36,113 nt of DNA, from the NCBI GenBank assembly GCA_045595105.1, contig JAZNZV010000114.1, positions 1 through 36,113 on the forward strand. Direction: 5' to 3'. The position numbers were made by a program, and so were the translations under genes. The notes beneath the pieces were generated by a model. That model was not told the origin of the DNA. It ran no database searches and was given only the letters and a program-made list of their open reading frames with translations. Origin of the DNA: Eubacteriales bacterium (GTDB lineage Bacteria; Bacillota; Clostridia; Oscillospirales; SIG627). This document shows positions 10,709-36,113 of this stretch, in pieces (positions within the stretch are counted from its first letter, which is position 1; every line of letters begins with the position of its first letter).

Positions 10709-10720
10709 AAGGTGAATTTG

Positions 10721-12016
10721 ATGGAAATAAAACGTGATTTATATTTAAACAAAATGATAAGCTTAAAGCACAATGGACTAATTAAAATCATTACAGGAAT
10801 AAGAAGGTGTGGAAAATCTTATCTGCTAAATGAACTTTTCTACAATCATTTAATAGAAACGGGGGTTGACGAGAGTCATATCATCCGCTTTGCATTTGAT
10901 TCTGCAGACGACCTTAGCATGATTGGTGAAAGCATTATTGATATGGAAAAGAATAAGCGGAAGGCTGACCCCGAGAAGTTTATGGAATACGTACGTTCAC
11001 AGATTAAAGATCATGAAATGTACTACCTTCTTCTTGACGAGGTACAACTGCTTGATTGCTTTGAGGCTGTGCTGAACGGTTATTTACGTAAAAAAAATAT
11101 GGACGTATACGTAACCGGAAGTAATGCGAAGTTTTTGTCTAAGGATATTATTACTGAATTTGCAGGTCGTGGGGATGAAATTCATATGTACCCTCTTAGC
11201 TTTTCCGAATTTATGACCGTTTATAAAGGTGATAAGTATGAAGGGCTGTCCGAATATATGCTTTACGGGGGAATTCCGCTTGTCGTTATTCGTGAAGGAC
11301 ATTCAAATAAAGCTTCTGCACTTGAAAACCTATTCAGCGAAATATATATCAGGGATATTCAGAAAAGAAACAAAGTGAAGAACGTCTCTGAATTTGAAGA
11401 TCTATTGAATATTGTGTCATCTTCAATAGGCTCACTAACAAATCCCGAAAAGCTAAAAAACACCTTCAGGTCTGTTAAAAACTCTAAAATCACTTCAGCG
11501 ACAGTAAAAAAGTATCTTGATTATTTTGAAGATTCTTTTTTGCTTGAATCAGCAAACAGATACGATATAAAGGGTAAGAGTTATATTGAAACTCCTAAAA
11601 AATATTATTTTTCAGACATGGGACTTAGAAATGCAAGAATAAGCTTTCGTCAGCTTGAACAGACACACGCTATGGAAAACGTCATTTACAACGAGCTGCG
11701 TATGAGAGGATATAAGGTTGACGTTGGAGTAGTTACTGTAAGTCAGAAGGATGAAAACGGCAAATCAGTCAGAAAACAGTTGGAGGTGGATTTCGTTTGT
11801 AATCTCGGCTCCAAGAAGTATTATATACAGTCCGCATTTTCCATTCCCGATGAAAAGAAAAGAGAACAGGAAACGAGACCTTTTACACATATCAATGATT
11901 CTTTTAAGAAAATTGTTATTACTAAGGATATAGTACCTTCTTATTATGATGAAAACGGAATACTCACAATGAACGTATACGATTTTTTAATTGACAGCAA
12001 AAGCTTGGACAGATAA
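10721..12016 (+). CDS. AAA+ ATPase of the AAA_14/DUF4143 (COG1373-like) family
   Basis: Walker A GIRRCGKSYLL and Walker B YYLLLDEVQ. The C-terminal block LEVDFVCNLGSKKYYIQSAF resembles the nuclease-fold DUF4143 tail. The ATG at 10721 is preferred (SD AAAGGTG 7 nt upstream) over the track's GTG at 10712. Lines sampled by eye are clearly more AT-rich than the neighbouring genes. Confidence 0.8.
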   Translation: MEIKRDLYLNKMISLKHNGLIKIITGIRRCGKSYLLNELFYNHLIETGVDESHIIRFAFDSADDLSMIGESIIDMEKNKRKADPEKFMEYVRSQIKDHEMYYLLLDEVQLLDCFEAVLNGYLRKKNMDVYVTGSNAKFLSKDIITEFAGRGDEIHMYPLSFSEFMTVYKGDKYEGLSEYMLYGGIPLVVIREGHSNKASALENLFSEIYIRDIQKRNKVKNVSEFEDLLNIVSSSIGSLTNPEKLKNTFRSVKNSKITSATVKKYLDYFEDSFLLESANRYDIKGKSYIETPKKYYFSDMGLRNARISFRQLEQTHAMENVIYNELRMRGYKVDVGVVTVSQKDENGKSVRKQLEVDFVCNLGSKKYYIQSAFSIPDEKKREQETRPFTHINDSFKKIVITKDIVPSYYDENGILTMNVYDFLIDSKSLDR

Positions 12017-14992: not shown

Positions 14993-15021
14993 ACAATATC
15001 ACGAAAGGAAATGTTTGTCAA
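14993..15021 (-). promoter_or_regulatory. Sigma-A type promoter of the GntR-ABC operon
   Basis: Minus strand reads TTGACA (15021-15016), 17 nt, then TATTGT (14998-14993), preceded by TGA (extended -10). Confidence 0.6.
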
Positions 15022-15041
15022 TAGTTTTTTCAAAAAAAATT

Positions 15042-15071
15042 ACCACCCGAAAAAATTTTTTCTCGGGTGGT
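15042..15071. terminator. Bidirectional intrinsic terminator ending the phage-like operon
   Basis: ACCACCCGA-AAAAATTTTTTC-TCGGGTGGT. Both strands carry A/T runs (AAAAAAAATT upstream, GATTTGTTTGTTTTTT downstream). Confidence 0.8.
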
Positions 15072-15109
15072 GATTTGTTTGTTTTTTGGTCTAACCTTTT
15101 TTAAGCCCC

Positions 15110-16048
15110 TTAATAATAGCCTAAAGATTTTGCATAGAGCTTGACCTGATATCTGTAAGAGTAGTCAAGGAATGAGTCCTGAACTATCGCCTTTATAGCA
15201 TCATATATGGTGTTTTTCGTCTTTTCACCCATGCCATATTTATTCTGATAGGTAAGAACTATTTTATCCACCAGCGTTCTGGCGTTGTAATCGGGTGTAA
15301 TACGATCCGACGATGAGCTGCCACTGCCCGACGAGCTCTTCGACGAGCCGTCAGAAGAGGCGCTTTTACCCTCGCTTTCTTTTTCGAGGCTGTTTACGTA
15401 GCGTTCATGCTTTTCATCGTCACGCTCCGCTTCATAGTCACGGTTGTCGGCAAAGCGGTCGTAGATCTCGTCGTCACGCTCTGCCTCGTAATCACGGTTA
15501 TCGGCGAAACGGTCGTACTTTTCATCGTCACGCTTCGCTTCATAGTCACGGTTATCTGCAAAGCGGTCGTATTTTTCATCATCACGCTCTGCCTCGTAAT
15601 CTCGGTCACGGTTAAGCTGACTCATATAAGCGTTGTTCTTCTCTTTTTCAAGCGAGCTTACCTCCCCAAGATAGTTTATAAAAGCCGAATTCTTAGCCTT
15701 TGCTCTGTTCTCTTCGTTTTGTCTTATAGAAGCCTCAGAGTCACTTTCTATCTGAGAGATTGCACTCATTCTTTGCAGGTTGTTGTCAAGCTCTGCCTGT
15801 ACCGAGTCTCCCGACCTCGACAGCCCCTTTTCAAGGAGTCCTGCCTTAGTGTTATGAAGTGCGATTTTAGCCGAAGCGTCGGCAGAATTTTTCTTTTTGT
15901 GAGCGTTCTTTTCTATCTCCTTGTTCTTGGAGTTTATCTCACGGTCTATCCCCGAAAGAGTTGCCATGTACTTTTCGGTGAGCTTAGACAGGGAAGAGGA
16001 GTAGCCGTCAAGAACGCTTTTTGCAAGTCCTTTGGTTGAAATTGCCAT
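15110..16048 (-). CDS. Coiled-coil/acidic-repeat protein of unknown function (last gene of the phage-like operon)
   Basis: 312 aa with SD GGGGAGGTGA. It has a helical, charged N-terminal half and about 3.7 copies of the 18-aa unit DYEAERDDEKYDRFADNR. A Ser-rich linker SASSDGSSKSSSGSGSSSSD precedes a ~70-aa C-terminal domain. No TM segment. Confidence 0.6.
   Translation of the reverse strand: MAISTKGLAKSVLDGYSSSLSKLTEKYMATLSGIDREINSKNKEIEKNAHKKKNSADASAKIALHNTKAGLLEKGLSRSGDSVQAELDNNLQRMSAISQIESDSEASIRQNEENRAKAKNSAFINYLGEVSSLEKEKNNAYMSQLNRDRDYEAERDDEKYDRFADNRDYEAKRDDEKYDRFADNRDYEAERDDEIYDRFADNRDYEAERDDEKHERYVNSLEKESEGKSASSDGSSKSSSGSGSSSSDRITPDYNARTLVDKIVLTYQNKYGMGEKTKNTIYDAIKAIVQDSFLDYSYRYQVKLYAKSLGYY
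15414..15611. repeat. 54-bp tandem repeat, ~3.7 copies (in-frame, encodes the 18-aa acidic repeat)
   Basis: Units are at 15414-15467, 15468-15521 and 15522-15575, with a partial unit to ~15611. Copies differ at a few mostly synonymous or conservative positions. Confidence 0.9.
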
Positions 16049-16063
16049 AATATCACCTCCCCT

Positions 16064-16639
16064 TTAAGCATATACGGTGCCCTGCACCAGCTTTTCAAAC
16101 AAAAGGTCGAACCATTTCCATTTTTTCATGTATTCAATAGTGTTGTCACCCAGCCCGAAAAGCTTTTTGGTGAGTGCTACAAAGGTCTCGGTACACAGAA
16201 AGGTCTTCACGCTGTATGTGTCTGTGACAGAGGCACTTTTTTCAATGAAAAAGCTCTTATATCCTCTCACGTCAAGATGTACCGCTCTGTTATTTATAAC
16301 CCCTATTCCGTCAAAGCCCAGCATCTCGGCAATTGCCGCAAGCTCATAGGAGGTATAGCCCTCCACTCTTATATCGGCGGCAAGCCCCTTAGTGTGCTGA
16401 CCTGCCTTTCCCGTGAGAAGCTTGTCGTATTCCTCGGTCCTATAACCGTCGGTTACGATTATGGGCTTGTATTTTACTGCCCTCGAGAGCTTTTCAAGCA
16501 TGATGATAAGCTCCTCCGAAATGAGAATTTTATCTCCGTCAAGAGAATTTCCACGTCTTGCACGGAACTCCTTTACTCTGAAATGGTCACTTAACTTGTC
16601 GTTTCCGTTTGTTTTATACGAATATTCTTTAACTGCCAA
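16064..16639 (-). CDS. Peptidase M15 (zinc D-Ala-D-Ala carboxypeptidase-type) cell-wall hydrolase, endolysin-like
   Basis: 191 aa. The blocks HFRVKEFRARRGN, VTDGYRTEEY, HTKGLAADIRVEG and AVHLDVR fit the Peptidase_M15_3/YcbK-like H-D-H zinc site. A ~60-aa C-terminal extension follows. No signal peptide. TTG start. Confidence 0.75.
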   Translation of the reverse strand: MAVKEYSYKTNGNDKLSDHFRVKEFRARRGNSLDGDKILISEELIIMLEKLSRAVKYKPIIVTDGYRTEEYDKLLTGKAGQHTKGLAADIRVEGYTSYELAAIAEMLGFDGIGVINNRAVHLDVRGYKSFFIEKSASVTDTYSVKTFLCTETFVALTKKLFGLGDNTIEYMKKWKWFDLLFEKLVQGTVYA

Positions 16640-16651
16640 ATTTTCACCTTC

Positions 16652-17614
16652 TTACTTAATGTATTCAATAATAACGGCACCGTCACCGCCGTCATATCCC
16701 GTCTTGAATTTGTCGCCGTTAAGCCTTGATGCCCCATATCCGCCACCGCCGGGACCTGCCTCGTCTCCTTCAAAGGCTCCGCCGTTTCCGAGAATTGAGT
16801 TTCCTCCCGCAAGGAAGAGTATGGCAGGGGAGGTAGATGAATTATAGAACCTTGTCACCTCGGGATATCCTCCGCTGTAATTCAGGTCACCGCCCTCGCT
16901 TCTTGCCCTTGCTCCAAATCCAATGACACCACCCGATGCCGTCAGCACTGTTTTTGCGTTGAGGGAAAGCGTGGTGTCACCGCCTTCGGTAGCACTTGAC
17001 ACAAGCACGCTGTCCTCGTCTATTTTAAGACCCTTGCCCTTCTCTCCCACAGTGACGGTACAAACGTCGCCTGCCGTCAGGTCAAGCCACTTTACCACTC
17101 CTGCACCTGCACCGCCTCCAATTCCTACCATGGCATTGGAGGGGTTTATACCTCCTCCTGCGCCTGCTCCTACCATGGTTATCTTGTAGGTGCCCGAACG
17201 CTCCACGTTAAAGGTGTGCTCACCCGGTGTCATAAATCGGGTACACCTTATAGACGCTGAGGTGAGGAAGTCGGAGATTTCATCGGAAAACTTGTCGGGA
17301 CTCACCGAGCCGTCGGGAATAACTCCGTTTACCAGCTCCTTTATCTGTTCGGAAATGGATATGAGCTTGTCCTGAACAGTGTCTCCCGAAATTATGTCTA
17401 TCTCCGACGAGCCTATCATGTCCGCACCCGACCGTCCGTTGGTGTAGGAGGCGAGCTCTTCTATGAGAGTGTTGTTGATATAATCCTTTATATCAATTCC
17501 CGCCTTATCGAAAAGTGCCTTCATGTCGTTGGCGGTGTAGCCCTGTTCGAGATTTGGGCGGTCGGGAAGCTTAGAAATATTATCAAGGTCTTTTGTTAGT
17601 TTTGTAAGCTTCAT
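16652..17614 (-). CDS. Tail fibre/receptor-binding-like protein with a glycine-rich C-terminal domain
   Basis: 320 aa. The N-terminus LPDRPNLEQGYTANDMKALFDKAGIDIKDYINNTLIEEL resembles the conserved N-termini of Firmicute phage fibre proteins. The C-terminus is Gly-rich beta-type (MVGAGAGGGINPSN, GIGGGAGAGV, GPGGGGYGASR, YDGGDGAVIIEY). Confidence 0.55.
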   Translation of the reverse strand: MKLTKLTKDLDNISKLPDRPNLEQGYTANDMKALFDKAGIDIKDYINNTLIEELASYTNGRSGADMIGSSEIDIISGDTVQDKLISISEQIKELVNGVIPDGSVSPDKFSDEISDFLTSASIRCTRFMTPGEHTFNVERSGTYKITMVGAGAGGGINPSNAMVGIGGGAGAGVVKWLDLTAGDVCTVTVGEKGKGLKIDEDSVLVSSATEGGDTTLSLNAKTVLTASGGVIGFGARARSEGGDLNYSGGYPEVTRFYNSSTSPAILFLAGGNSILGNGGAFEGDEAGPGGGGYGASRLNGDKFKTGYDGGDGAVIIEYIK

Positions 17615-17707
17615 AATTGTCTCTCCTTTATTTTTTATTTACTAAAAACAATCTCGCCGTTTTGTTTTATTTAGATTTATAAAACACAAGGATAGGCGAG
17701 AATTGCC

Positions 17708-17762
17708 AGCGGCGGCTCGCCGCTTTGTTATCAGCCTCCCCCCAAAAGGAGAGGGAGGCTGA
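17708..17762 (-). other. Two GC-rich stem-loops without U-tracts just downstream of the capsid gene
   Basis: The first is TCAGCCTCCC, a 12-nt loop, then GGGAGGCTGA (17731-17762). The second is AGCGGCG-GCT-CGCCGCT (17708-17724). The capsid stop codon is at 17773. Confidence 0.6.
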
Positions 17763-17772
17763 TAAAGAATTG

Positions 17773-18597
17773 TTATTCCGCAAGGGAAACGTCGATAAAT
17801 ACCATTTCCTTGGGGTAAACGATTTTTGCACCGTAAAGGTGAAGACCCTTTACAGCAGTACCGTTTCTGAGCTCAGGCTCATAAGGCTTGATAGAGTTTA
17901 TCTGCTCTGCAAAAGCGATAGCACGCTCTGTACGGGCAATACATCTGTAAAAGCCGTCGGGAGCCTTCTGAATGTTGTTGGTCACGTAAATGTCAAAGCC
18001 GAACATCTTACCGATGTAGCCCTTAGAAAGAGCGTTTGAGTTGTTGGTATCGGTGAGAAGATTTGCCATAACGAGTAACTGCTCAACTGCAGGGGGTACC
18101 TCAAGGGAAATAGTTGCGGAATTGGGAACGTTATTTTCCATGAGAATTCTTCTTGCATTGCTTATTACCGATACGATATTGTCGGCAGTAAGCCCTTCCT
18201 TGATAATGGCGGTAACGTTGTCGTCCTCAAGGGAATAGATGTACTGGTCTGCTACGTCACTGAGGGCGTCAGCCGCCTTCTTCATAGCCGCCTGAACAAG
18301 CTTGGGAGAGGACTGCACGTCGTCGATTGCATCGATGCAGAAGTTAAAGCCCTTCGCCTGGTCGATAACGAGAGTTCTTGTGTTGTCCGAGAGCACCTCG
18401 GGAGCAGGCATGTTGGTGTTCTTGGTGTAGTTGAACACAGTTACAGGACCAAGACCGTTTATCTTTACTCTGTCACCCTGTGTCTTTATCTCGCCCTCAT
18501 ACTCTCTTGATGAAAGCTTAACGCCTACGTAATTCTTCTGAAGCTCATCGTAAAGTGCTTCGCTCCATACTGTGGGAATAAAATTATTAATAGCCAT
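17773..18597 (-). CDS. Major capsid protein (HK97-fold, P22-coat/gp5-like family)
   Basis: 274 aa. The N-terminus MAINNFIPTVWSEALYDEL and the C-terminus AVKGLHLYGAKIVYPKEMVFIDVS resemble conserved ends of small HK97-fold coat proteins. It follows a scaffold-like gene. Confidence 0.7.
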   Translation of the reverse strand: MAINNFIPTVWSEALYDELQKNYVGVKLSSREYEGEIKTQGDRVKINGLGPVTVFNYTKNTNMPAPEVLSDNTRTLVIDQAKGFNFCIDAIDDVQSSPKLVQAAMKKAADALSDVADQYIYSLEDDNVTAIIKEGLTADNIVSVISNARRILMENNVPNSATISLEVPPAVEQLLVMANLLTDTNNSNALSKGYIGKMFGFDIYVTNNIQKAPDGFYRCIARTERAIAFAEQINSIKPYEPELRNGTAVKGLHLYGAKIVYPKEMVFIDVSLAE

Positions 18598-18636
18598 ATT
18601 ATTTTACCTTTCTACGGTTTTTCCGTAATCCTTTCT

Positions 18637-19047
18637 TTAGTTCCATTTCTCCATGGATTTCATTATTGTGTGATAGTTCTTTCTTATTTCTGCCTCGGTC
18701 ATGCCCTTCACGTCCTCGGGAGTGAAGAAGGCATCCTCTGTGGCATTTTTTACGTCAGGGGGAGCAGCTTTGAGGTTTTCTTCCTCTTTTTCCTTCTGCT
18801 CACCCTTCTTTTTCTCTTCCTTTAGGTAGAAGAGAGCGTACTCTGCGGCAAGTCCCTTGCCATTGTTACTTTTCTCAAAAACCTCATCGGGAATATCGTC
18901 CACGTTTACGTCGGGGAAAATCTCAAAGAGGGTCTTAAGCTCTTCTTCAAGATTTTTCTTCACGATTTTTTCGAGACGGTATTCTTCAATATCGGATTCA
19001 GAAAAAGCATCGATTTCTTTTAAAATCTTTTCTGTTTCTTTATTCAT
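18637..19047 (-). CDS. Scaffolding-like protein (acidic, helical)
   Basis: It sits directly upstream of the capsid gene and is rich in E/K (EEKKKGEQKEKEEENLK). The ATG at 19047 is preferred (AAAGGA 6 nt upstream). The track start at 19077 would add 10 aa. Confidence 0.5.
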   Translation of the reverse strand: MNKETEKILKEIDAFSESDIEEYRLEKIVKKNLEEELKTLFEIFPDVNVDDIPDEVFEKSNNGKGLAAEYALFYLKEEKKKGEQKEKEEENLKAAPPDVKNATEDAFFTPEDVKGMTEAEIRKNYHTIMKSMEKWN

Positions 19048-19066
19048 GTTTTTTCCTTTCGTAAAG

Positions 19067-20812
19067 TTATTTGGCATCAGTAAGTCTGCCCTTGATTTTC
19101 AGTGACAACAGGTGGAAGTCACCGTTGTTTTCGTCACTTTTTAAGATGATTTTAAAGCCACGACAGCGCTTGAGCTTTATTCTCTTTGAAAGCCTGACGG
19201 GGGTAATGGCAGTCTTAAAGCTGAATAAATCAAAATAAATGCTGTCAAAGTCAAACACTTTATAATCAAGCCCAACGCTATGGGCAATAGAAGTAGCATT
19301 GTCGGATACCCAAAGTATATCGAAGGAGGTTGCGCTGACGGGAAGAAGCTCAAATTCTACCGAATGTATGTTTTTGGTGTCAAGTCCCGATATATCCTCG
19401 TAGCCTGTTTCCCAATGAAAATCAATTTTCTTGTCACCGTCAAGGCTCTCGGAAATGAAACGGCAAAGACTTCCGTCATTTCTTTGAAAATAAACGTCGG
19501 AGGACGGTGCTTCGGTAAAGTATGCGGCATTCAGCCCCTCATAGTAATAATAAAGGTCAAGGGCGTAGTTATAAACGTAAAGCTTATCACCGCTCCATAA
19601 ATAGAGCTCACTCATGCTCTCTCTGTCGAAGAGAGAAATACCCCTTTCGCTTATTTCGTGAAGTCCCGCTTTGATGCGTTCTCCTATGTTTTCAGCGTTC
19701 CTTTCATCACGAATACTTGTAGATACCCAGCGGTACAAGCTACCGCTATGAACGGTCAGGGGAGTGTTCAGCGCAAGGACAGCGCACCCCTCCTCACTGC
19801 AACCGACAGTTGACGACAGAGTTCTGACGGGGAAGGAGAGATATTCCTTTCCGTTGGCATCGCTCTTCGTCTCAATGTAAGAATAATAGGCATCGGCTTC
19901 AGTGAATATGAGAAGCCTGTCATAATGCCTCAAAATAGAGGTCACCGCATTGCCCGACAGCGTCTTGTTAAAGGAAAGCTCGGGAAAATACTCCATTCCC
20001 GACACGCCGTCGTGAACTCCCGAATATCTGTAAATTGCAGGATTTTCCTTATCTCCCCACAAAAAGATACGGGTATCGTTGTCTCCTCCCCAAAGAGTGG
20101 CATATCTCATTTTGTGTATGAGCTCCTCCCCCTCCGACGGCTTTTTTGAGTACCTTACCTCAAAAGCATTCGGGTCGGTAGAGCTTGGTTCGTTTTTCAA
20201 AGAGACAATACCGCTTTCAAGGTCAACGGTATAGGTGTTTGTCGCAAGTGCTTCTCCGAGAACACTGACACTTATGACCTCGTCAATATCCTTTTCGGCA
20301 AGGATAAGGTCTCGGTGGTCCGAGTCCATGGTAAAGGACTGACGCCTTTCGGAAGTGAGAAGATTTATTTCTTCAAAGGCGATGCCACCGCCGTTAACGT
20401 CTGTGGATATGGCGACGAGAGGAACGTAAGGCTGAAGGTCTTTCACCTCTTCTCCCTGCCATACCTTTATTTTCGTTCCGTCGAGGAAATAAAGACTGTC
20501 TCCCAAGGGAAGGAAGGTGACCCTTCCACTGTCACTTTCAAGCGCTCCCACAGGGGTACTCTCCCCGTTATACCGACGGTAAACGGTGCTTCCTGCTACG
20601 AAGAAGATGCTGTCCTTGAAGGCGAAGACCCCTCGTGGCACACCCTCAAACCTTCCCAAAACCTCAAAGCCTTCTCTCAGGGCAAGGGTGTAGCTTTCGG
20701 TAACTCTCAGATTTTTCATACGAGGACTTTCTCCCACTCTCAGAACGGTGTCCGAGAAGGGCTCGTGGAGACCGAGAAACTTGTGTATTTCAGTTCTGAA
20801 GTTTTTTGCCAT
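19067..20812 (-). CDS. Beta-rich repeat protein, possible tail hub/nozzle (function inferred only)
   Basis: 581 aa with SD GAGGTGA. It has recurrent blade-like motifs: TVYRRYNG, LYFLDGTKIKVW, AIYRYSG, GSLYRWVS, KLYVYNY, VYFQRNDGS. No Walker A and no TM segment. Confidence 0.35.
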   Translation of the reverse strand: MAKNFRTEIHKFLGLHEPFSDTVLRVGESPRMKNLRVTESYTLALREGFEVLGRFEGVPRGVFAFKDSIFFVAGSTVYRRYNGESTPVGALESDSGRVTFLPLGDSLYFLDGTKIKVWQGEEVKDLQPYVPLVAISTDVNGGGIAFEEINLLTSERRQSFTMDSDHRDLILAEKDIDEVISVSVLGEALATNTYTVDLESGIVSLKNEPSSTDPNAFEVRYSKKPSEGEELIHKMRYATLWGGDNDTRIFLWGDKENPAIYRYSGVHDGVSGMEYFPELSFNKTLSGNAVTSILRHYDRLLIFTEADAYYSYIETKSDANGKEYLSFPVRTLSSTVGCSEEGCAVLALNTPLTVHSGSLYRWVSTSIRDERNAENIGERIKAGLHEISERGISLFDRESMSELYLWSGDKLYVYNYALDLYYYYEGLNAAYFTEAPSSDVYFQRNDGSLCRFISESLDGDKKIDFHWETGYEDISGLDTKNIHSVEFELLPVSATSFDILWVSDNATSIAHSVGLDYKVFDFDSIYFDLFSFKTAITPVRLSKRIKLKRCRGFKIILKSDENNGDFHLLSLKIKGRLTDAK

Positions 20813-20822
20813 CTATATCACC

Positions 20823-21221
20823 TCAATACACGTTCTTGACCGAGGAGTGAGAGGCTACCGAGTAACCCTTCACTACTCTCTCTTCACTTTCTCTGAAAAG
20901 GCTCATGAAGTAGTCGGCACGCACGCTGTCCTCCTCAAGTATCATAACCGACGCCAGATAAAACGGCATCACTCCCGAGGTGAGGGCATCGTGGAGAGGA
21001 ATAGTGTCGTCGAGGGCTTTTATCCCCTCAAAGGGAGTATCAAGGTCCCTTATTTTCTTTCCTCTTATAATGCACTCCGAGGGCAGGAGAAGAGTTATGA
21101 TAGTGTTGATTATTTCAGGGGCATTTTTTTCAAAGTCGGTGACGTCGGTATGGTATGCACCCACTCCGTCACGCTCATTTATAAGGGATAGCGCTCGGGT
21201 GTAAACCTGTCGTGCTGTCAT
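20823..21221 (-). CDS. Small structural protein, possible head-tail adaptor (inferred from position)
   Basis: 132 aa from the ATG at 21221 (SD GGGAGGAG 5 nt upstream). This start lies 47 nt inside the 3' end of the portal-like ORF. The track start at 21299 is unsupported. Confidence 0.35.
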   Translation of the reverse strand: MTARQVYTRALSLINERDGVGAYHTDVTDFEKNAPEIINTIITLLLPSECIIRGKKIRDLDTPFEGIKALDDTIPLHDALTSGVMPFYLASVMILEEDSVRADYFMSLFRESEERVVKGYSVASHSSVKNVY

Positions 21222-22761
21222 AAGACTCCTCCCTTCGCATTTTACAGTCTTCGATAAGGGCTTCCTTTGACGCAATGTACCCCTCGGGCAATCTTTCAAG
21301 ATACTGCTCTAAGGTGATGAGTCCTGCAGTCAAGAGCTTTTCAAGAGTGGCAAGACTTGCCGCCTCACTCCAATATCCCGTCATACCTGCCGAAACGTTG
21401 CAGGAGAAGATGACGTCACGGTATACTTCAACGTCTGCCATCTCTCCTCTCAGCTCTCCCTTGTCACGCCACATCATCATGCGGTGTCGGTCGTAGTAAT
21501 TCAGAATATAGTCCACCCAGATAAGACCCAGCTCCTCAATCGCCATATAAAGCGCTCTCTTCTGAATTTCAAGAGGCACCGACGATGACTCCTGAAGAGC
21601 AATTATCGCCGAGGTGTTGTTGGCATCAACGTTACCAAGAGCCGCATCGGTTGCTCCCATAAGCTCTCGTGTCATGTTCATGGTAAGACTTATTACGTCG
21701 AGAAATCCCGACTGCATGACACCGGGGGAGAGCACCTCGGCAACGCTGTCAACGGGACCGTTGACACCAATTGCCTCACCTACCTCGTTGGTCCATTCGT
21801 CAATGACGTTCTGGTTGTATACCACCTTTGAGAAGGACACGTTTATCATGTGCTTCATTACCATGGCGAACGCCTTATTGATATATATCTGATTTTCAAT
21901 AAGACCTGTTCCCGCTGCAGTTCCGTGATAGGAATTCTTGGTAGAGTCCCAGTTCATAAGAACAATGGGGTAAAGGGAGAGCTTGGTATCAACCTCATCG
22001 CAAATAACGGTGTTTTTTGTGCTCTTGCGATAGTGTATTCTTCCGTCCTTTCGGTAAAGCTTTATAACGTAGGTACACTTGGTGTCGGAAAGCTCCTTTT
22101 TCCCGTTGTCTCCCGCTTCGTCGGTGGTGTCGCTGTCAGCGGTTATTCTTTCAACGTCCTTTACGCCATTAATCCTTGCCTCTTCTCTCAGCTCTTCCAC
22201 AAGTCCTCTTCCCGAAATGAGAATGTAGGGCTGTGACTGAACCTCAGAGGTATTGACGTCTCCGAAGAAAACGTTGGTGGAGTCAAGAAGCTTTGTGGCA
22301 AAATCCCCTCTGTACTTCTGAGACGTTCGCTTGTTTCTGTCCCAGTAAACGTAAAGGAACATATCACCGCTGAGAGCCGCATCCTTAACACCCTCGTAGA
22401 GAAGGGCAGTCAGGTTGTCCTTTTCAAATCGGTAGTTAAGGTAAGAGGATATGAGGTTACATACTCTTGTAAGCTCATCTCTCGTCTCCTTCTTGTAGAT
22501 GACCCCTGCACTCTCAGCATCAATCTTCAAGGCAACCTTCGCCGACATAATATTCGATACGAAATAGCCGATTACTCTCTTGAAGATATTGAAGACGGGT
22601 GTGGGAAGTCCTCCGCTGACTACTCCGTTCCATTGGTCGCCACGCCAGAAACGTTCGTTTTTACTCACGCTTTCGTAAAAGCCAATGCTCCTGTTGTAGT
22701 CTCTGCCCTTTTCAAGAAGCTTCCAGTCTTCAGAGAGGACTTCTTTTGTTTTCATTTTCAA
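21175..22761 (-). CDS. Portal-like protein
   Basis: 528 aa and the first large gene of the structural operon. The NERFWRGDQWNG...LPTPVFNIFKRVI region and the central GATDAALGNVDANNTSAIIALQESS region resemble portal families. No Walker A, so it is not a terminase. The start is TTG at 22761 or ATG at 22755. Confidence 0.55.
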   Translation of the reverse strand: MKMKTKEVLSEDWKLLEKGRDYNRSIGFYESVSKNERFWRGDQWNGVVSGGLPTPVFNIFKRVIGYFVSNIMSAKVALKIDAESAGVIYKKETRDELTRVCNLISSYLNYRFEKDNLTALLYEGVKDAALSGDMFLYVYWDRNKRTSQKYRGDFATKLLDSTNVFFGDVNTSEVQSQPYILISGRGLVEELREEARINGVKDVERITADSDTTDEAGDNGKKELSDTKCTYVIKLYRKDGRIHYRKSTKNTVICDEVDTKLSLYPIVLMNWDSTKNSYHGTAAGTGLIENQIYINKAFAMVMKHMINVSFSKVVYNQNVIDEWTNEVGEAIGVNGPVDSVAEVLSPGVMQSGFLDVISLTMNMTRELMGATDAALGNVDANNTSAIIALQESSSVPLEIQKRALYMAIEELGLIWVDYILNYYDRHRMMMWRDKGELRGEMADVEVYRDVIFSCNVSAGMTGYWSEAASLATLEKLLTAGLITLEQYLERLPEGYIASKEALIEDCKMRREESYDSTTGLHPSAIPYK

Positions 22762-22764
22762 TCC

Positions 22765-22941
22765 TTATCGCCTCCTTTCTTTTTTATGGTCATAGGATAT
22801 GATGTTTTGCCAGAAGTCGGTGCCCCGTGGTTTTTCCACTGACGGTTCGGTCTTCTCTTCCTGAAGAAGTCTTATTATCTTAACTACCCCCAAAAAGCAC
22901 AATCCCTCAAGAAGCAAAAGAATAAGTATCAATGCCGTCAT
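22765..22941 (-). CDS. 58-aa single-pass membrane protein (holin-like features), first gene of the phage-like operon
   Basis: Sequence MTALILILLLLEGLCFLGVVKIIRLLQEEKTEPSVEKPRGTDFWQNIISYDHKKERRR. A strong SD GGGAGGTGA lies 4 nt before the ATG at 22941. One TM helix is followed by a highly charged tail. Below the ORF-track cutoff. Confidence 0.5.
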   Translation of the reverse strand: MTALILILLLLEGLCFLGVVKIIRLLQEEKTEPSVEKPRGTDFWQNIISYDHKKERRR

Positions 22942-22970
22942 AAATTCACCTCCCTTCTCCTGACGTTTTT

Positions 22971-22999
22971 AATATATCACAAAGTCCACTGCCATTCAA
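22971..22999 (-). promoter_or_regulatory. Sigma-A type promoter of the phage-like operon
   Basis: Minus strand reads TTGAAT (22999-22994), 17 nt, then TATATT (22976-22971), preceded by TGA (extended -10). It lies about 30 nt upstream of the ATG at 22941. Confidence 0.6.
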
Positions 23000-23025
23000 T
23001 GACATGGCACTGCCAAAGACTGCCA
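22988..23025. promoter_or_regulatory. Cluster of ACTGCCA/TGGCA motifs (candidate operator)
   Basis: ACTGCCA occurs at 22988-22994, 23009-23015 and 23019-23025. The 11-bp palindrome TGGCACTGCCA is at 23005-23015. The first copy overlaps the -35/spacer of the phage-like operon promoter. Confidence 0.5.
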
Positions 23026-23165
23026 TCTTTTTGGAAGGTGGTAAAAAGTGCTATTTTATAGGGGCTTTGAGGATTTTTAACTTTCATTTTTTTGTAAGTC
23101 TTTACCTCTTTTGCATAAATTTTCACCTATTTGAGAATACTGTCGCCGAGAAAGGTGTTGACTTT

Positions 23166-34637: not shown

Positions 34638-34985
34638 ATGACAGTTAAAAGAGGAGATATATTTTACGCAGACCTCAGTCCCGTCATCGGCTCAGAGCAA
34701 GGGGGAGTGAGACCTGTTGTTATAGTACAAAACGACGTTGGAAACCGTCATAGCCCCACCGTTATCGCCGCCGCAATAACAAGTAAGACCGATAAAGCCA
34801 AGCTCCCCACACATATAGAGGTAGAGGCATTTCAGTTCGGGCTGGCAAAGGACTCAGTGATTTTGCTGGAGCAAGTACGTACGATAGATAAAAAAAGACT
34901 GAAGGAAAAAATGGGACATTTAGAGGATGAAACCATGGAGAGGGTAAATTCTGCTATATCTGTCAGCTTCGGACTTGAGGGGTAA
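34638..34985 (+). CDS. mazF: MazF/EndoA-type mRNA interferase toxin (PemK family)
   Basis: 115 aa. [46 protein letters not shown]...KLPTHIEV...[17 protein letters not shown] is close to B. subtilis EndoA (NdoA) along its whole length. SD AAAGGAG. Confidence 0.95.
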
Positions 34986-35001
34986 ATAAAGACCGTAATC
35001 A

Positions 35002-35025
35002 AAAAAGCCGTCATAAGACGGCTTT
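35002..35025. terminator. Bidirectional intrinsic terminator
   Basis: AAAAGCCGTC-ATAA-GACGGCTTTT lies between the convergent mazF and 35032-35547 genes. Confidence 0.85.
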
Positions 35026-35031
35026 TGGTTA

Positions 35032-35547
35032 TTACTGTGCAATTTTAAAGGTTTTTGTAATCACTTTGTCATTGAAGCTGATGAACTCCTCAAGCTCCAC
35101 TTGTATGTCTGTGGTTGTGTCATTTAAGGTATATGCCACCTCTACTTCAATAGAAGTATCAGACTTAATTTTCTTTGATTGGTTGTCGGCAGAATAGTTT
35201 GCACTTTCATCTGCAAAGTAACAATGCTCCATCTCTACTCCGTCCTGATACGCACTATCCGTAAAAGCTACGCTGAAAGATGATGCCTCATCGGAATTAT
35301 TAGTGAATGTGTATTTGACAATAGCAATAGGATTTCCTTCCCAATCCTCAGCAAGACGGCAACTGTCAATAGTGACAGTGTAGTTACCGAGAGTTTCATT
35401 GTCATTATTAACTGTGTTTTCTGTTTCTCCTGCCTCTTGCTCTTCCGTTGTGCCTTCCGAAGAGCTGCTCATTGCCATAAGAGCAAAAGCAAAAAGTACC
35501 GTTACAGTTAAAAGTGCAGGGATAATTTTTTTAATTACCTTTTTCAT
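35032..35547 (-). CDS. Exported DUF5067/DUF4352-like protein
   Basis: 171 aa from the ATG at 35547 (SD AAAGGAGA). Signal/anchor MKKVIKKIIPALLTVTVLFAFALMAM. The core NYTVTIDSCRLAEDWEGNPIAIVKYTFTNNSDEASSFSVAFTDSAYQDGVEME fits the family pattern. Confidence 0.6.
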   Translation of the reverse strand: MKKVIKKIIPALLTVTVLFAFALMAMSSSSEGTTEEQEAGETENTVNNDNETLGNYTVTIDSCRLAEDWEGNPIAIVKYTFTNNSDEASSFSVAFTDSAYQDGVEMEHCYFADESANYSADNQSKKIKSDTSIEVEVAYTLNDTTTDIQVELEEFISFNDKVITKTFKIAQ

Positions 35548-35945
35548 AATATTCTCCTTTTTATTGATTTGATAGTATGAACAGAAATTATTACGGCGAT
35601 GAAACATACCAAAATATCAACTATATCGAATGTGCCCTTAACAATTTTCATTTTTTGCATTATTTCCCATATTACTCCGAAGGAAAAAGAAATAATGGCA
35701 GAAGTCTTTAAACTGTGTATCAGCGATAAAGCAACGTTTAAAGAGAAAGCCCAAGCAAAGTCTGAAAAATAGTATTTGAAAATGTAGGTAATCAAACTAT
35801 CAGCAATATTTTCTGGCAGTTTGACTATCTTTTTTACACTGTCGTGAAAATATGTATCAGGTCTAAAAAATACATATGCCAGAAATCCGCAAGTCAGCGA
35901 AATAAGACATAACAAGATACAGATAAATTTATGGTGTTTTTTCAT
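35544..35945 (-). CDS. Small multi-pass membrane protein, unknown function
   Basis: It has about 4 hydrophobic segments and an ATGA overlap with the downstream gene. The start is placed at the ATG at 35945 (or a leaderless ATG at 35960), because the consensus promoter at 35968-35996 lies inside the track's longer ORF. Confidence 0.5.
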   Translation of the reverse strand: MKKHHKFICILLCLISLTCGFLAYVFFRPDTYFHDSVKKIVKLPENIADSLITYIFKYYFSDFAWAFSLNVALSLIHSLKTSAIISFSFGVIWEIMQKMKIVKGTFDIVDILVCFIAVIISVHTIKSIKRRIL

Positions 35946-35967
35946 AGCTTTTTCTTCCATCGGCAAA

Positions 35968-35996
35968 ATTATAACACAAATGTGTTCTTTTGTCAA
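35968..35996 (-). promoter_or_regulatory. Sigma-A type promoter
   Basis: Minus strand reads TTGACA (35996-35991), 17 nt, then TATAAT (35973-35968). Both hexamers are perfect consensus. Confidence 0.7.
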
Positions 35997-36052
35997 CATA
36001 TGTGTTCATAAAACTCATAAAAAAACTCTACAATTATTGCAGAGGTGATAAT

Positions 36053-36113
36053 ATGTCAGAAATATATCTTGATTCTAAAATAGTAGGAGAAGCAATAGCG
36101 AACTGCAGAAAAC
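36053..36113 (+). CDS. 5' end of an ORF running off the right edge (possibly an HTH regulator)
   Basis: SD GAGGTGA lies 4 nt before the ATG. The visible sequence is MSEIYLDSKIVGEAIANCRK, and the IGxxIxxxRK pattern resembles XRE N-termini. Too short to be sure. Confidence 0.3.
   Translation, partial: MSEIYLDSKIVGEAIANCRK

Follow-up and report, generated by a model that had tools for sequence, protein, structure and literature searches.

The question raised by the stretch of DNA described here is why a bacterial chromosome would keep an operon for the head, tail and lysis proteins of a short-tailed phage particle at a place where no enzyme for filling that particle with DNA is encoded. The stretch, referred to below as the window, comprises 36,113 nt from an Eubacteriales bacterium (contig JAZNZV010000114.1, assembly GCA_045595105.1), and the operon consists of nine intact open reading frames (ORFs) on the minus strand, which fill positions 15110-22941 (7,832 bp). 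An earlier note, made from the letters of the window alone, had proposed that these genes form a domesticated phage-derived cluster rather than a decaying prophage. In this study we show that the cluster is a real, domesticated module for a P22-like particle and is inherited vertically: it occurs in 23 species-level genomes, has a fixed locus, shows low ratios of non-synonymous to synonymous substitutions (dN/dS) and has diverged together with its flanks. We tentatively propose that it is one part of a gene transfer agent (GTA)-like system, the other parts of which would lie elsewhere. The features of the locus are listed below, with g1 to g9 numbering the genes in the direction of transcription and the portal gene being g2.

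22971..23024, minus strand: promoter/operator, four direct repeats with a 10-nt period over the -35 element, extended -10 element
23024-23019, 23014-23009, 23004-22999 and 22994-22989, minus strand: the four repeats, GGCAGT, GGCAGT, TGTCAT and TGGCAG (sequence reading)
22999-22994 and 22979-22971, minus strand: -35 element TTGAAT, overlapped by the repeats, and, after a spacer of 17, extended -10 element TGaTATATT (promoter scan)
22765..22941, minus strand: g1, 58-aa protein with a single transmembrane (TM) segment and a conserved C-terminal FWQNIISYDHKK motif; no family match
21175..22761, minus strand: portal protein of podovirus type, 528 aa, TTG start; phrog_156 E 4.9e-28, PF16510 P22_portal E 1.5e-12, PF23899
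20823..21221, minus strand: g3, 132-aa protein, probable head-to-tail adaptor (P22 gp4 position); no family match
19067..20812, minus strand: g4, 581-aa protein, modelled as a tail hub/nozzle of P22 gp10 / T7 gp12 fold; phrog_3287 (virion structural protein) E 2.8e-10, AlphaFold2 (AF2) and Foldseek
18637..19077, minus strand: g5, 146-aa acidic scaffold-like protein, 35 D+E versus 25 K+R; no family match
17773..18597, minus strand: major capsid protein of HK97 type, 274 aa; phrog_267 E 6.2e-43, PF25209
17708..17724, no strand assigned: GC-rich palindromic hairpin within the 158 nt that follow the capsid gene, 7-bp stem with 6 GC pairs
16652..17614, minus strand: g7, glycine-rich tail fibre / receptor-binding protein, 320 aa; PF21722 E 1.7e-8, phrog_863 E 1.2e-17, phrog_14469 (N-terminus)
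16064..16639, minus strand: g8, M15 peptidoglycan peptidase (endolysin or virion lysin), 191 aa; PF08291 E 4.3e-11, phrog_894 endolysin E 4.2e-26
15110..16048, minus strand: g9, 312 aa; N-terminal domain and C-terminal part of about 70 aa both conserved, DNRDYEAERDDEKYDRFA repeats in variable number (alignment)
15033..15071, minus strand: intrinsic terminator at the operon end, 13-bp stem (15071-15042) with 6 GC pairs followed by AATTTTTTTT; also detected as inverted repeat I1

All nine ORFs lie where the earlier note had placed them, in the order g1, portal, adaptor (g3), hub (g4), scaffold (g5), capsid, fibre (g7), lysin (g8) and g9, and the gaps between them run from -47 to +39 nt with the sole exception of 158 nt 3' of the capsid gene. 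The promoter (22999-22971; TTGAAT, spacer of 17, TATATT with TG) and the terminator (15071-15042) that it had described at the two ends were both recovered. The hairpin in the 158-nt gap might act as a partial terminator that raises the capsid:tail mRNA ratio; in phage Page an annotated terminator likewise follows the head gene. The g1 stop codon is located 3 nt ahead of the portal start. For g3, either TTG 21299 (158 aa) or ATG 21221 (132 aa) can serve as the start, and the 132-aa form given in the earlier note is favoured because most orthologous ORFs, listed from the first possible start, are 132 aa long.

The identity of the main particle proteins could in part be established only through their folds. 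Profile searches of PDB sequences with g4, g9 and the portal gave nothing significant, so that for g4 and the portal a fold comparison was needed; the protein identity to P22 in the structural alignments is 9-12%, which is below the reach of sequence methods. For the portal, the AF2 model is only moderate, with a predicted local distance difference test (pLDDT) score of 67, and all 50 of the top 50 PDB matches found with it by Foldseek are phage portals or portal-tail complexes, mostly of podoviruses; the best are the portals of SU10, Pan3, N4, T7 and P22, including P22 gp1, with E-values of 3e-14 to 1e-9. The highest identity to a phage portal is 32%, to that of the Bacillus podophage Page. 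The g4 model, built on 52 homologues, has a pLDDT of 88.8 and a predicted TM-score (pTM) of 0.86 and matches the tail of Pa223 (E 4.8e-18) and P22 gp10 (8eap_D, E 2.8e-15, TMt 0.70), and further Pan3, SU10, VP1 and T7 gp12, over a Foldseek range of E 5e-18 to 1e-14; its matches in BFVD carry the name 'P22 Gp10, DNA-stabilising'. On the strength of this model, g4 is assigned as a tail hub or nozzle of the P22 gp10 / T7 gp12 type. The capsid profile aligns over its full length to a solved phage capsid (8e16_I, E 5.6e-49), and the protein is 38-43% identical to the capsids of phages D6E, AP45 and phiCP34O. Together with the family matches listed above, these results substantiate the portal-like, HK97/P22-coat-like and podovirus-like characters that had been read from the sequence, the portal, capsid and tail-hub folds each being confirmed when checked. 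The same holds for the glycine-rich fibre and the M15 peptidase, with their matches to PF21722/phrog_863 and PF08291/phrog_894.

Four of the nine proteins matched no family: g1 (58 aa, with its TM segment), g3 (132 aa), the acidic g5 (146 aa) and the repeat protein g9 (312 aa), the last of which is also without a PDB sequence match. NCBIfam has no name for any of the nine except for a weak MepK match of the lysin, and the PADLOC defence models gave zero matches. No ejection-protein or tailspike family was recognised among the nine proteins with Pfam and PHROG, the cluster having a glycine-rich fibre instead, and a Walker A motif is absent from all nine, as the earlier note had remarked. A holin-like role of g1 is only a guess.

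The surroundings of the cluster are those of an ordinary chromosome. Pfam scans of all large ORFs confirmed the GntR-ABC operon and the glucan synthase that had been named as flanks, the latter being a GH94 enzyme of 2,378 aa (cgs), and identified the spore-coat gene SipL; other genes in the window encode acyl- and glycosyltransferases, phosphotransferase system (PTS) proteins and aminotransferases or peptidases. Neither a terminase nor an integrase nor a replication gene is present in the window (Pfam on all large ORFs; tblastn with six large (TerL) and two small (TerS) terminase subunit queries), and a repressor or lysis-lysogeny switch is likewise missing from it; the Pfam and PHROG scans thus agree with the earlier statement that no integrase, repressor or replication gene stands in or beside the cluster. 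The window has no tRNA genes, and no flanking or att-like repeats were found at the cluster. In base composition the cluster follows its flanks (GC 0.467 versus 0.464; GC at third codon positions, GC3, 0.526 versus 0.522), and its relative synonymous codon usage (RSCU) correlates with that of the flanks at 0.951, the baseline of one flank against the other being 0.941. The AT-rich islands of the window deviate from this (GC 0.375, RSCU r 0.48). The codon usage of the cluster is indistinguishable from that of the host, in agreement with the host-like composition that had been judged by eye.

Relatives were sought by their portal in a scan of one genome per species, and portals with 57-93% identity were found in 23 species-level metagenome-assembled genomes (MAGs), which are labelled Clostridia, Eubacteriales or Oscillospiraceae and several of which are named as sheep, goat or roe-deer gut. 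The window and 14 MAGs with the same genes in the same order make up group 1. In at least 12 species, the window included, the sequence extends into both flanks, and the nine genes are bordered there by GntR-ABC and the GH94 synthase; in one group-1 MAG SipL takes the place of the synthase as flank, and in two further species the nine-gene cluster adjoins one of those two flanks. The eight larger genes are intact and free of frameshifts in every group-1 species (at least 14), and only g1, with a dN/dS of 0.36-0.41, is degenerate in a few (L005, L006, L007 and L011). The pairwise dN/dS of the eight larger genes is about 0.03-0.2, like that of the flanking ABC, GntR, cgs, SipL and PTS genes, and their synonymous divergence (dS) is similar to that of the flanking genes. 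The portal and the capsid exceed the adjacent housekeeping genes in conservation: among the cluster proteins the portal ranks first, with 73% mean column identity over 11 species and a dN/dS of 0.03-0.075, and the capsid dN/dS is 0.02-0.11. The lysin has a dN/dS of 0.03-0.06, and the fibre is, after g9, the most divergent large gene (36-82% identity, dN/dS 0.12-0.27). Protein distance matrices of the hub, the fibre, the lysin and g9 correlate with that of the flanking ABC ATPase at r 0.84-0.93 (Mantel 0/2000); for the capsid the correlation is weaker (r 0.51, Mantel 62/2000). At the DNA level the cluster matched none of 50,697 phage and 72,556 plasmid records, and at the protein level the closest phage sequences reach 43% identity with the capsid and 32% with the portal. 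Strain specificity, a match to a known phage genome, a dN/dS close to 1 and frameshifts, which the earlier note had listed as signs that would undo its reading, are thus contradicted by what was found, and because the cluster is inherited vertically under purifying selection we reject the view that it is a prophage remnant.

The orientation of the cluster differs within group 1. In the window (15003-23165) and in its closest relative, L003, the complete cluster is flipped, together with its promoter, with respect to GntR-ABC and cgs; in L004, L006, L007, L009, L010, L013, L015 and L023, g1 and GntR are transcribed away from each other and g9 reads towards cgs. The ends of the cluster showed no inverted repeats by which the inversion in the window and L003 might be explained. 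In L004-L012 and L023 a palindrome, GTGTAyTAAtcGtATTAGTACAC, is conserved about 60-150 nt upstream of the repeat promoter, between this promoter and the divergent GntR gene. It is probably the GntR operator, and owing to the inversion it is absent beside the cluster promoter in the window and L003.

The window cluster has relatives with other gene arrangements, and these relatives help to assign its less conspicuous genes. Group 2 comprises nine loci, each from a different MAG and one of them so short that only the portal is seen, with a portal about 58% identical, at a chromosomal site other than that of group 1. It has six genes only, in the order portal, scaffold, capsid, g3, g4 and g9-like, which is that of the P22 genes 1-8-5-4-10-26. 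It is because of this match that g3, which directly precedes the hub gene in every group and is kept in groups 1-3, is regarded as the probable head-to-tail adaptor, an assignment by position, and that g9 is regarded, from its position and architecture, as a candidate tail needle or plug (P22 gp26 position) or other virion protein. The g9 repeats are charged and 18 residues long, vary in number between species and are reduced to zero in group 2 in the alignment; g9 is a core gene of groups 1-3. The scaffold role suggested for g5 would be consistent with its place immediately before the capsid gene in all groups and with its homology (phmmer E 6e-20) to the protein of 179/180 aa that group 3 encodes between its portal and capsid genes. 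The fibre (g7) and the lysin (g8) occur in group 1 only.

More distant relatives, with portals 35-51% identical, have a TerS (PF16677 GP3_package, the P22 gp3 family) and a TerL directly before the portal. The group-3 clusters (among them L105, L106, L108-L110 and L113-L115), with the order TerS, TerL, portal, scaffold, capsid, x, adaptor, hub and g9-like, are chromosomal and come from Clostridia MAGs or metagenome contigs; their span is about 7.6-9.6 kb in L105, L106 and L110 and about 7.6-9.0 kb in L108, L109 and L114. They occupy two loci, one next to GtrA/SBP_bac_5 and about 7-9 kb downstream of a GH94 synthase, an enzyme whose gene is likewise a flank of the group-1 cluster, the other next to secDF-lepA and a radical-SAM gene, and both are syntenic over several MAGs or metagenome contigs and devoid of mobility genes. 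Seven of seven TerL homologues that were looked up sit beside the portal in group-3 clusters. Six core genes are homologous between group 3 and the window (phmmer, from E 1e-172 for the portal down to E 2e-9 for g9), the group-3 capsid being only about 30% identical to that of the window, and one subgroup of group 3 adds a holin. Group 3 looks like a classical GTA cluster, and the window element is a terminase-less branch of the same family. The family is widespread in public data, where its portals form more than 2,500 clusters and related terminases number more than 7,500. It has at least three gene arrangements, each of them syntenic across species, and we found no other paper that describes it. 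On an IMG/VR contig of group-2-like type (L028, 1-3050), a beta-roll fibre and an Amidase_2 lysin are encoded upstream of the repeat promoter, and a small g1-like ORF with a WQSIIGYDHRK motif lies between this promoter and the portal. Modules for fibre and lysis functions are interchangeable among the groups.

The promoter of the cluster points to a phage origin of its control. The repeat core ATGTCATTG(A/T)ATG(G/T)CAG is conserved upstream of the group-1 cluster, and a variant, TTGTCATTG(C/T)GTGTCAGT, is conserved at the group-2 promoter despite the different locus. A search of both strands of 593 kb with a regular expression for the motif gave 23 matches, 22 of which lie exactly upstream of the cluster; the window holds a single site, with 0.01 expected by chance. 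The group-1 core is also present, letter for letter, in 45 IMG/VR contigs, many of which are phage contigs of 20-88 kb. There it stands in at least 13 of the 45 just upstream of terS or terL, and in 22 of them the repeats directly follow an ORF of about 140 aa, the stop codon of which in many cases lies inside the first repeat. Five of these ORFs were scanned and are DUF1492 and/or sigma-70 region 4 proteins, and a hidden Markov model (HMM) built from 12 of them recovers the rest of the 22. It has been reported that the Ltr late activators of Gram-positive phages comprise RinA, ArpU, LtrA (sigma70_r4), LtrB (DUF1492) and LtrC, that the ltr gene lies immediately upstream of terS with the direct repeats just past its stop codon as the Ltr binding site, and that Ltr, which is specific for its cognate repeats, is the only phage factor needed to switch on the whole morphogenesis-lysis operon (PMC3753634). 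This arrangement suggests that the cluster promoter is a retained phage late promoter with predicted binding repeats for an Ltr-type activator. The genes that flank the repeats in phages, for the activator and the terminase, have been lost from the cluster or were never nearby. No Ltr-type activator was found in the window and 37 genomic loci (647 kb), even at E <= 10 (tblastn; HMM from 12 Ltr proteins). The cluster had been described as self-contained with a promoter of its own; the promoter does exist, and what has to be given up is the self-containment, since this is a phage late promoter by its repeats and the activator it would need is not encoded nearby.

The group-2 variant behaves differently in the databases. 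In IMG/VR it has two exact matches, both chance-like inside unrelated sequence, and thus no true phage counterpart; a metagenome scan returned 17 loci, of which only L089, a cluster, and L088, a holin operon, are interpretable. In L088 (894-1697, minus strand; metagenome contig JAEIGA010189726.1) the variant promoter stands ahead of a Holin_LLH holin and a 134-aa membrane/coiled-coil ORF, with a HAD phosphatase gene and a phosphodiesterase-looking gene identified as neighbours by eye; the genes around the operon are of an ordinary metabolic kind. It is possible that L088 is an unlinked lysis locus of the group-2 system, and as this holin operon carries a variant that has no phage match, a chromosomal multi-locus regulon is suggested. 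In three further loci (L093, L094 and L102, metagenome JAEIGA01) the group-2 motif is combined with a good -10 element, and no gene could be recognised downstream of it; in L094 the motif is directed into an XRE-type regulator gene that is convergent with it, at the 3' end of that gene. In group 1, L011 has a second TGTCA-repeat promoter just after g9 (17986-18040), 18 nt of which are identical to the one before the L011 cluster; it precedes an ORF of about 216 aa for a winged-helix protein, weakly matched to TrmB, which could be a regulator belonging to the system. The group-3 promoters that were read (L105 and L106) have different direct repeats, with two to three copies of GGGACAAAA at a spacing of about 11 nt, which argues for an activator specificity other than that of groups 1 and 2. 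Control by sporulation was considered on account of the SipL and SpoVF-like neighbours and was dropped, as each group has other neighbours and it is the Ltr promoters of phages that the promoter matches. When TGTCA was read as a Spo0A box, the fit was only partial, and the promoter is unlike what we take to be the consensus sequences of sigma E, F, G and K.

Among described systems, the closest parallel is the FpGTA of Faecalibacterium prausnitzii, a podovirus-like GTA-like element in two loci with particles of about 40 nm that contain 8.4-8.9 kb of host DNA (PMC12946183, Nat Commun 2026; preprint 2024). It has since been described, so that the earlier statement that no podovirus-type version of such a cluster could be matched no longer stands, though it is not an orthologue. 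In the same study, long reads from virus-like particles (VLPs) of human faeces revealed that host DNA is packaged in a GTA-like manner in Oscillospiraceae, Ruminococcaceae and Christensenellaceae, and the gene cluster was identified only in Faecalibacterium (PMC12946183). Like the window cluster, FpGTA is chromosomal and non-mobile, has podovirus-type head-tail genes and comes from the same broad clostridial gut group; podovirus-like tail genes are common to both (in the window a gp10-like hub and a podovirus portal), fibre and lysis genes are part of both systems, and FpGTA is conserved across the species of a genus. Its order is portal, small protein, capsid, several small proteins and a charged repeat protein, 'TolA', which is abundant in the particles and is paralleled by g9. 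However, operon I of FpGTA begins with TerS and TerL, neither of which the window cluster has, and its fibre and lysis genes are in a second locus 125 kb away, whereas here they belong to the same operon. The FpGTA capsid is named 'N4-gp56 family' (RCH50849.1), whereas the window capsid and its relatives have no NCBIfam match at E <= 0.01 and match PF25209 and phrog_267 instead. For FpGTA, particles and DNA content have been demonstrated, whereas the window cluster is known from its genes alone. Compared with the published description of FpGTA, the window cluster is an analogue or distant relative of FpGTA and not an orthologue.

With phage P22 the cluster shares the PF16510 portal family and the gp10 hub fold, and its relatives share the gp3-family TerS. 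The P22 module (3-2-1-8-5-4-10-26) differs in that the window cluster has no recognised terminase, tailspike gp9 or ejection proteins, has a rearranged order and resides in a Gram-positive host. RcGTA of Alphaproteobacteria is likewise a domesticated head-tail cluster, inherited vertically under purifying selection, with accessory genes (lysis, fibres, regulators) at other loci; unlike the window cluster it is siphovirus-like and has TerS and TerL in the main cluster, and there is no sequence relationship between the two. Its activator GafA has a DNA-binding domain that resembles sigma region 4. The late operons of Ltr-controlled phages resemble the window cluster in the single promoter with direct repeats before a morphogenesis-lysis operon and differ from it in that the window cluster is without an activator gene and terS-terL, its promoter preceding a small ORF and the portal gene. 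Capsid-forming phage-inducible chromosomal islands (PICIs) and P4 have their own capsid and portal and otherwise depend on a helper, and the late genes of P4 are switched on by the late activator of the helper. These elements are mobile, with integrase, replication genes and att sites, and borrow their tails, whereas the window cluster is fixed, lacks mobility genes and has its own tail.

With a probability of roughly 0.45, we regard the cluster as a viriform, GTA-like module, a split GTA the activator and terminase of which are supplied in trans from elsewhere in the chromosome. According to this proposal, a P22/Page-like podovirus morphogenesis-lysis operon would have become a fixed, vertically inherited locus in an uncultured spore-forming clade of Oscillospiraceae/Eubacteriales. 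It would stay silent until an Ltr-type activator (sigma70 region 4/DUF1492) encoded elsewhere binds the TGTCA/GGCAG repeats that are spaced at 10 nt over the -35 element. Procapsids would then assemble on the portal and be filled by a terminase encoded elsewhere, preferably on the same chromosome as in multi-locus GTAs, with the result that host DNA is packaged; after addition of the tail, the M15 lysin, possibly with g1, would release the particles, which may attach to related cells via the fast-evolving fibre. The operon encodes all recognisable parts of a short-tailed particle, namely portal, scaffold, capsid, probable adaptor, hub, needle-like protein and fibre, and in addition the lysin. 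We favour this reading because multi-locus GTAs exist, with the podovirus-like FpGTA and its two loci as a precedent, because the chromosomal L088 holin operon bears the group-2 motif and because this variant has no phage match. It is also in agreement with the features by which GTAs are recognised, in that the cluster is a chromosomal set of phage-derived structural genes without integration, replication or lysogeny genes and is inherited vertically under purifying selection; an own large terminase is a feature that is missing, both from the window and from the 10 kb around the cluster in 23 genomes.

Several points weigh against this proposal. Within 10 kb of the cluster in the 23 genomes, neither a terminase (tblastn, six TerL and two TerS queries) nor an Ltr-type activator was found, and to our knowledge no GTA has been described in which the terminase gene is outside the main cluster. 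The proposal assumes that the terminase and the activator are located elsewhere in the chromosome. The seven TerL homologues sampled included no orphan terS-terL locus, a sample biased to group 3 in which none of the seven comes from a genome known to carry group 1 or 2. As no ejection-protein homologues were recognised, delivery of DNA is unproven. Finally, the hosts are uncultured MAGs and the particles are predicted from genes.

An alternative that we consider possible, if clearly less probable than the split GTA, is that the missing functions come from a phage. The cluster would be silent until a temperate phage that is induced, or a phage that infects the cell, expresses its late activator from the same Ltr/repeat pair; this Ltr protein would switch on the chromosomal operon and the TerS-TerL of the phage would fill the host-encoded procapsids, with phage interference (decoy capsids, defence), piggy-back transduction of host DNA or both as the outcome. 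The cluster might in that case be a phage-responsive particle factory that has kept only the cis-acting late promoter, a fixed, non-mobile counterpart of a capsid-forming satellite and of a kind not yet described. This idea draws on the fact that the cluster is without exactly the two functions that flank the motif in phages, ltr upstream and terS-terL downstream, on the identity of the group-1 repeat core with that in the 45 IMG/VR contigs, many of them phage contigs of 20-88 kb, and on the specificity of Ltr proteins for their cognate repeats and their sufficiency for activation (PMC3753634). Several of the motif-bearing phages have a Page-like TerL and portals 29-33% identical to that of the cluster, and some of their contigs share an IMG sample series with cluster contigs (3300018475/18494 and 3300018493/18495); pressure from phages would also account for the strong purifying selection. 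However, no known defence family matches the proteins (PADLOC), and a decoy is not obviously in need of an adaptor, hub, needle, fibre and lysin, yet all of these are under purifying selection. Compatible helpers would have been required throughout a divergence in which flanking proteins are only 40-50% identical, the functioning of a 30%-identical portal with a foreign terminase is unproven, and the group-2 motif has no true phage match in IMG/VR, yet is found at non-phage loci including a chromosomal holin operon.

Less likely still is a particle that contains no DNA, being empty or loaded with protein, and has no terminase at all, which could serve as a bacteriocin-like killer, a receptor-blocking phage decoy or a protein carrier. 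The absence of a terminase from the window and the vicinity of all 23 loci would fit this reading, and group 1 has retained the lysin and a fibre that evolves fast, as expected of a receptor-binding part. It is, however, hard to see without DNA translocation why the portal is the most conserved protein (73% mean column identity); the sister group 3 combines the same core with a retained TerS-TerL, genes for cargo loading or for a toxin are absent, and we know of no podovirus-type killing particle. That the cluster is simply a functionless deletion remnant of a decaying prophage, as the lack of terminase, integrase and replication genes and the degenerate g1 of a few species might suggest, is very improbable in view of eight larger genes that are intact in at least 14 species at one locus, a dN/dS of about 0.03-0.2, a dS equal to that of the flanks, co-divergence with these flanks, host-like codon usage and a conserved promoter common to two groups at different loci. 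At least as improbable is an active mobile satellite (a PICI, or one like the capsid-forming PICIs) or a small integrated podophage: a capsid, a portal and a scaffold without a large terminase are indeed what capsid-forming PICIs have, but the cluster has no integrase, primase or replication gene, repressor, att-like repeats or tRNA target, is fixed in its chromosomal position with a divergence that tracks the host, and encodes its own tail. Encapsulin and tailocin readings were ruled out, as the portal and a capsid with a tail are both present.

Two AT-rich stretches of the window are separate from the cluster. The island at 10712-12016 (plus strand, GC 0.34-0.38) encodes an AAA_14 + DUF4143 ATPase that matches the PADLOC candidate defence model PDC-S01 with E 8.7e-115. 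In L003 the ABC permease gene directly adjoins the LamG-metallophosphatase gene and the island is missing, and it looks like a strain-specific insertion. The second stretch (34638-36113) contains a MazF/PemK toxin gene (34638-34985) and encodes a DUF5067 protein (35032-35607); a MazF homologue with 90% identity is encoded near the cluster in L012.

Compared with known GTAs and viriforms, the window element is new in having no linked terminase and a phage-type late promoter with an unlinked activator, and it is in these two respects that its novelty within this kind of element lies. The clusters of groups 1-3 are concrete candidates for the missing GTA-like packaging machinery in uncultured Clostridia of gut and rumen, and the repeat motif (TGTCATTGNNTGKCAGT) provides a handle for finding the rest of the regulon. 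The terminase-less branch would mean either that GTAs can be split more radically than the known examples or that a host has fixed a helper-dependent capsid module.

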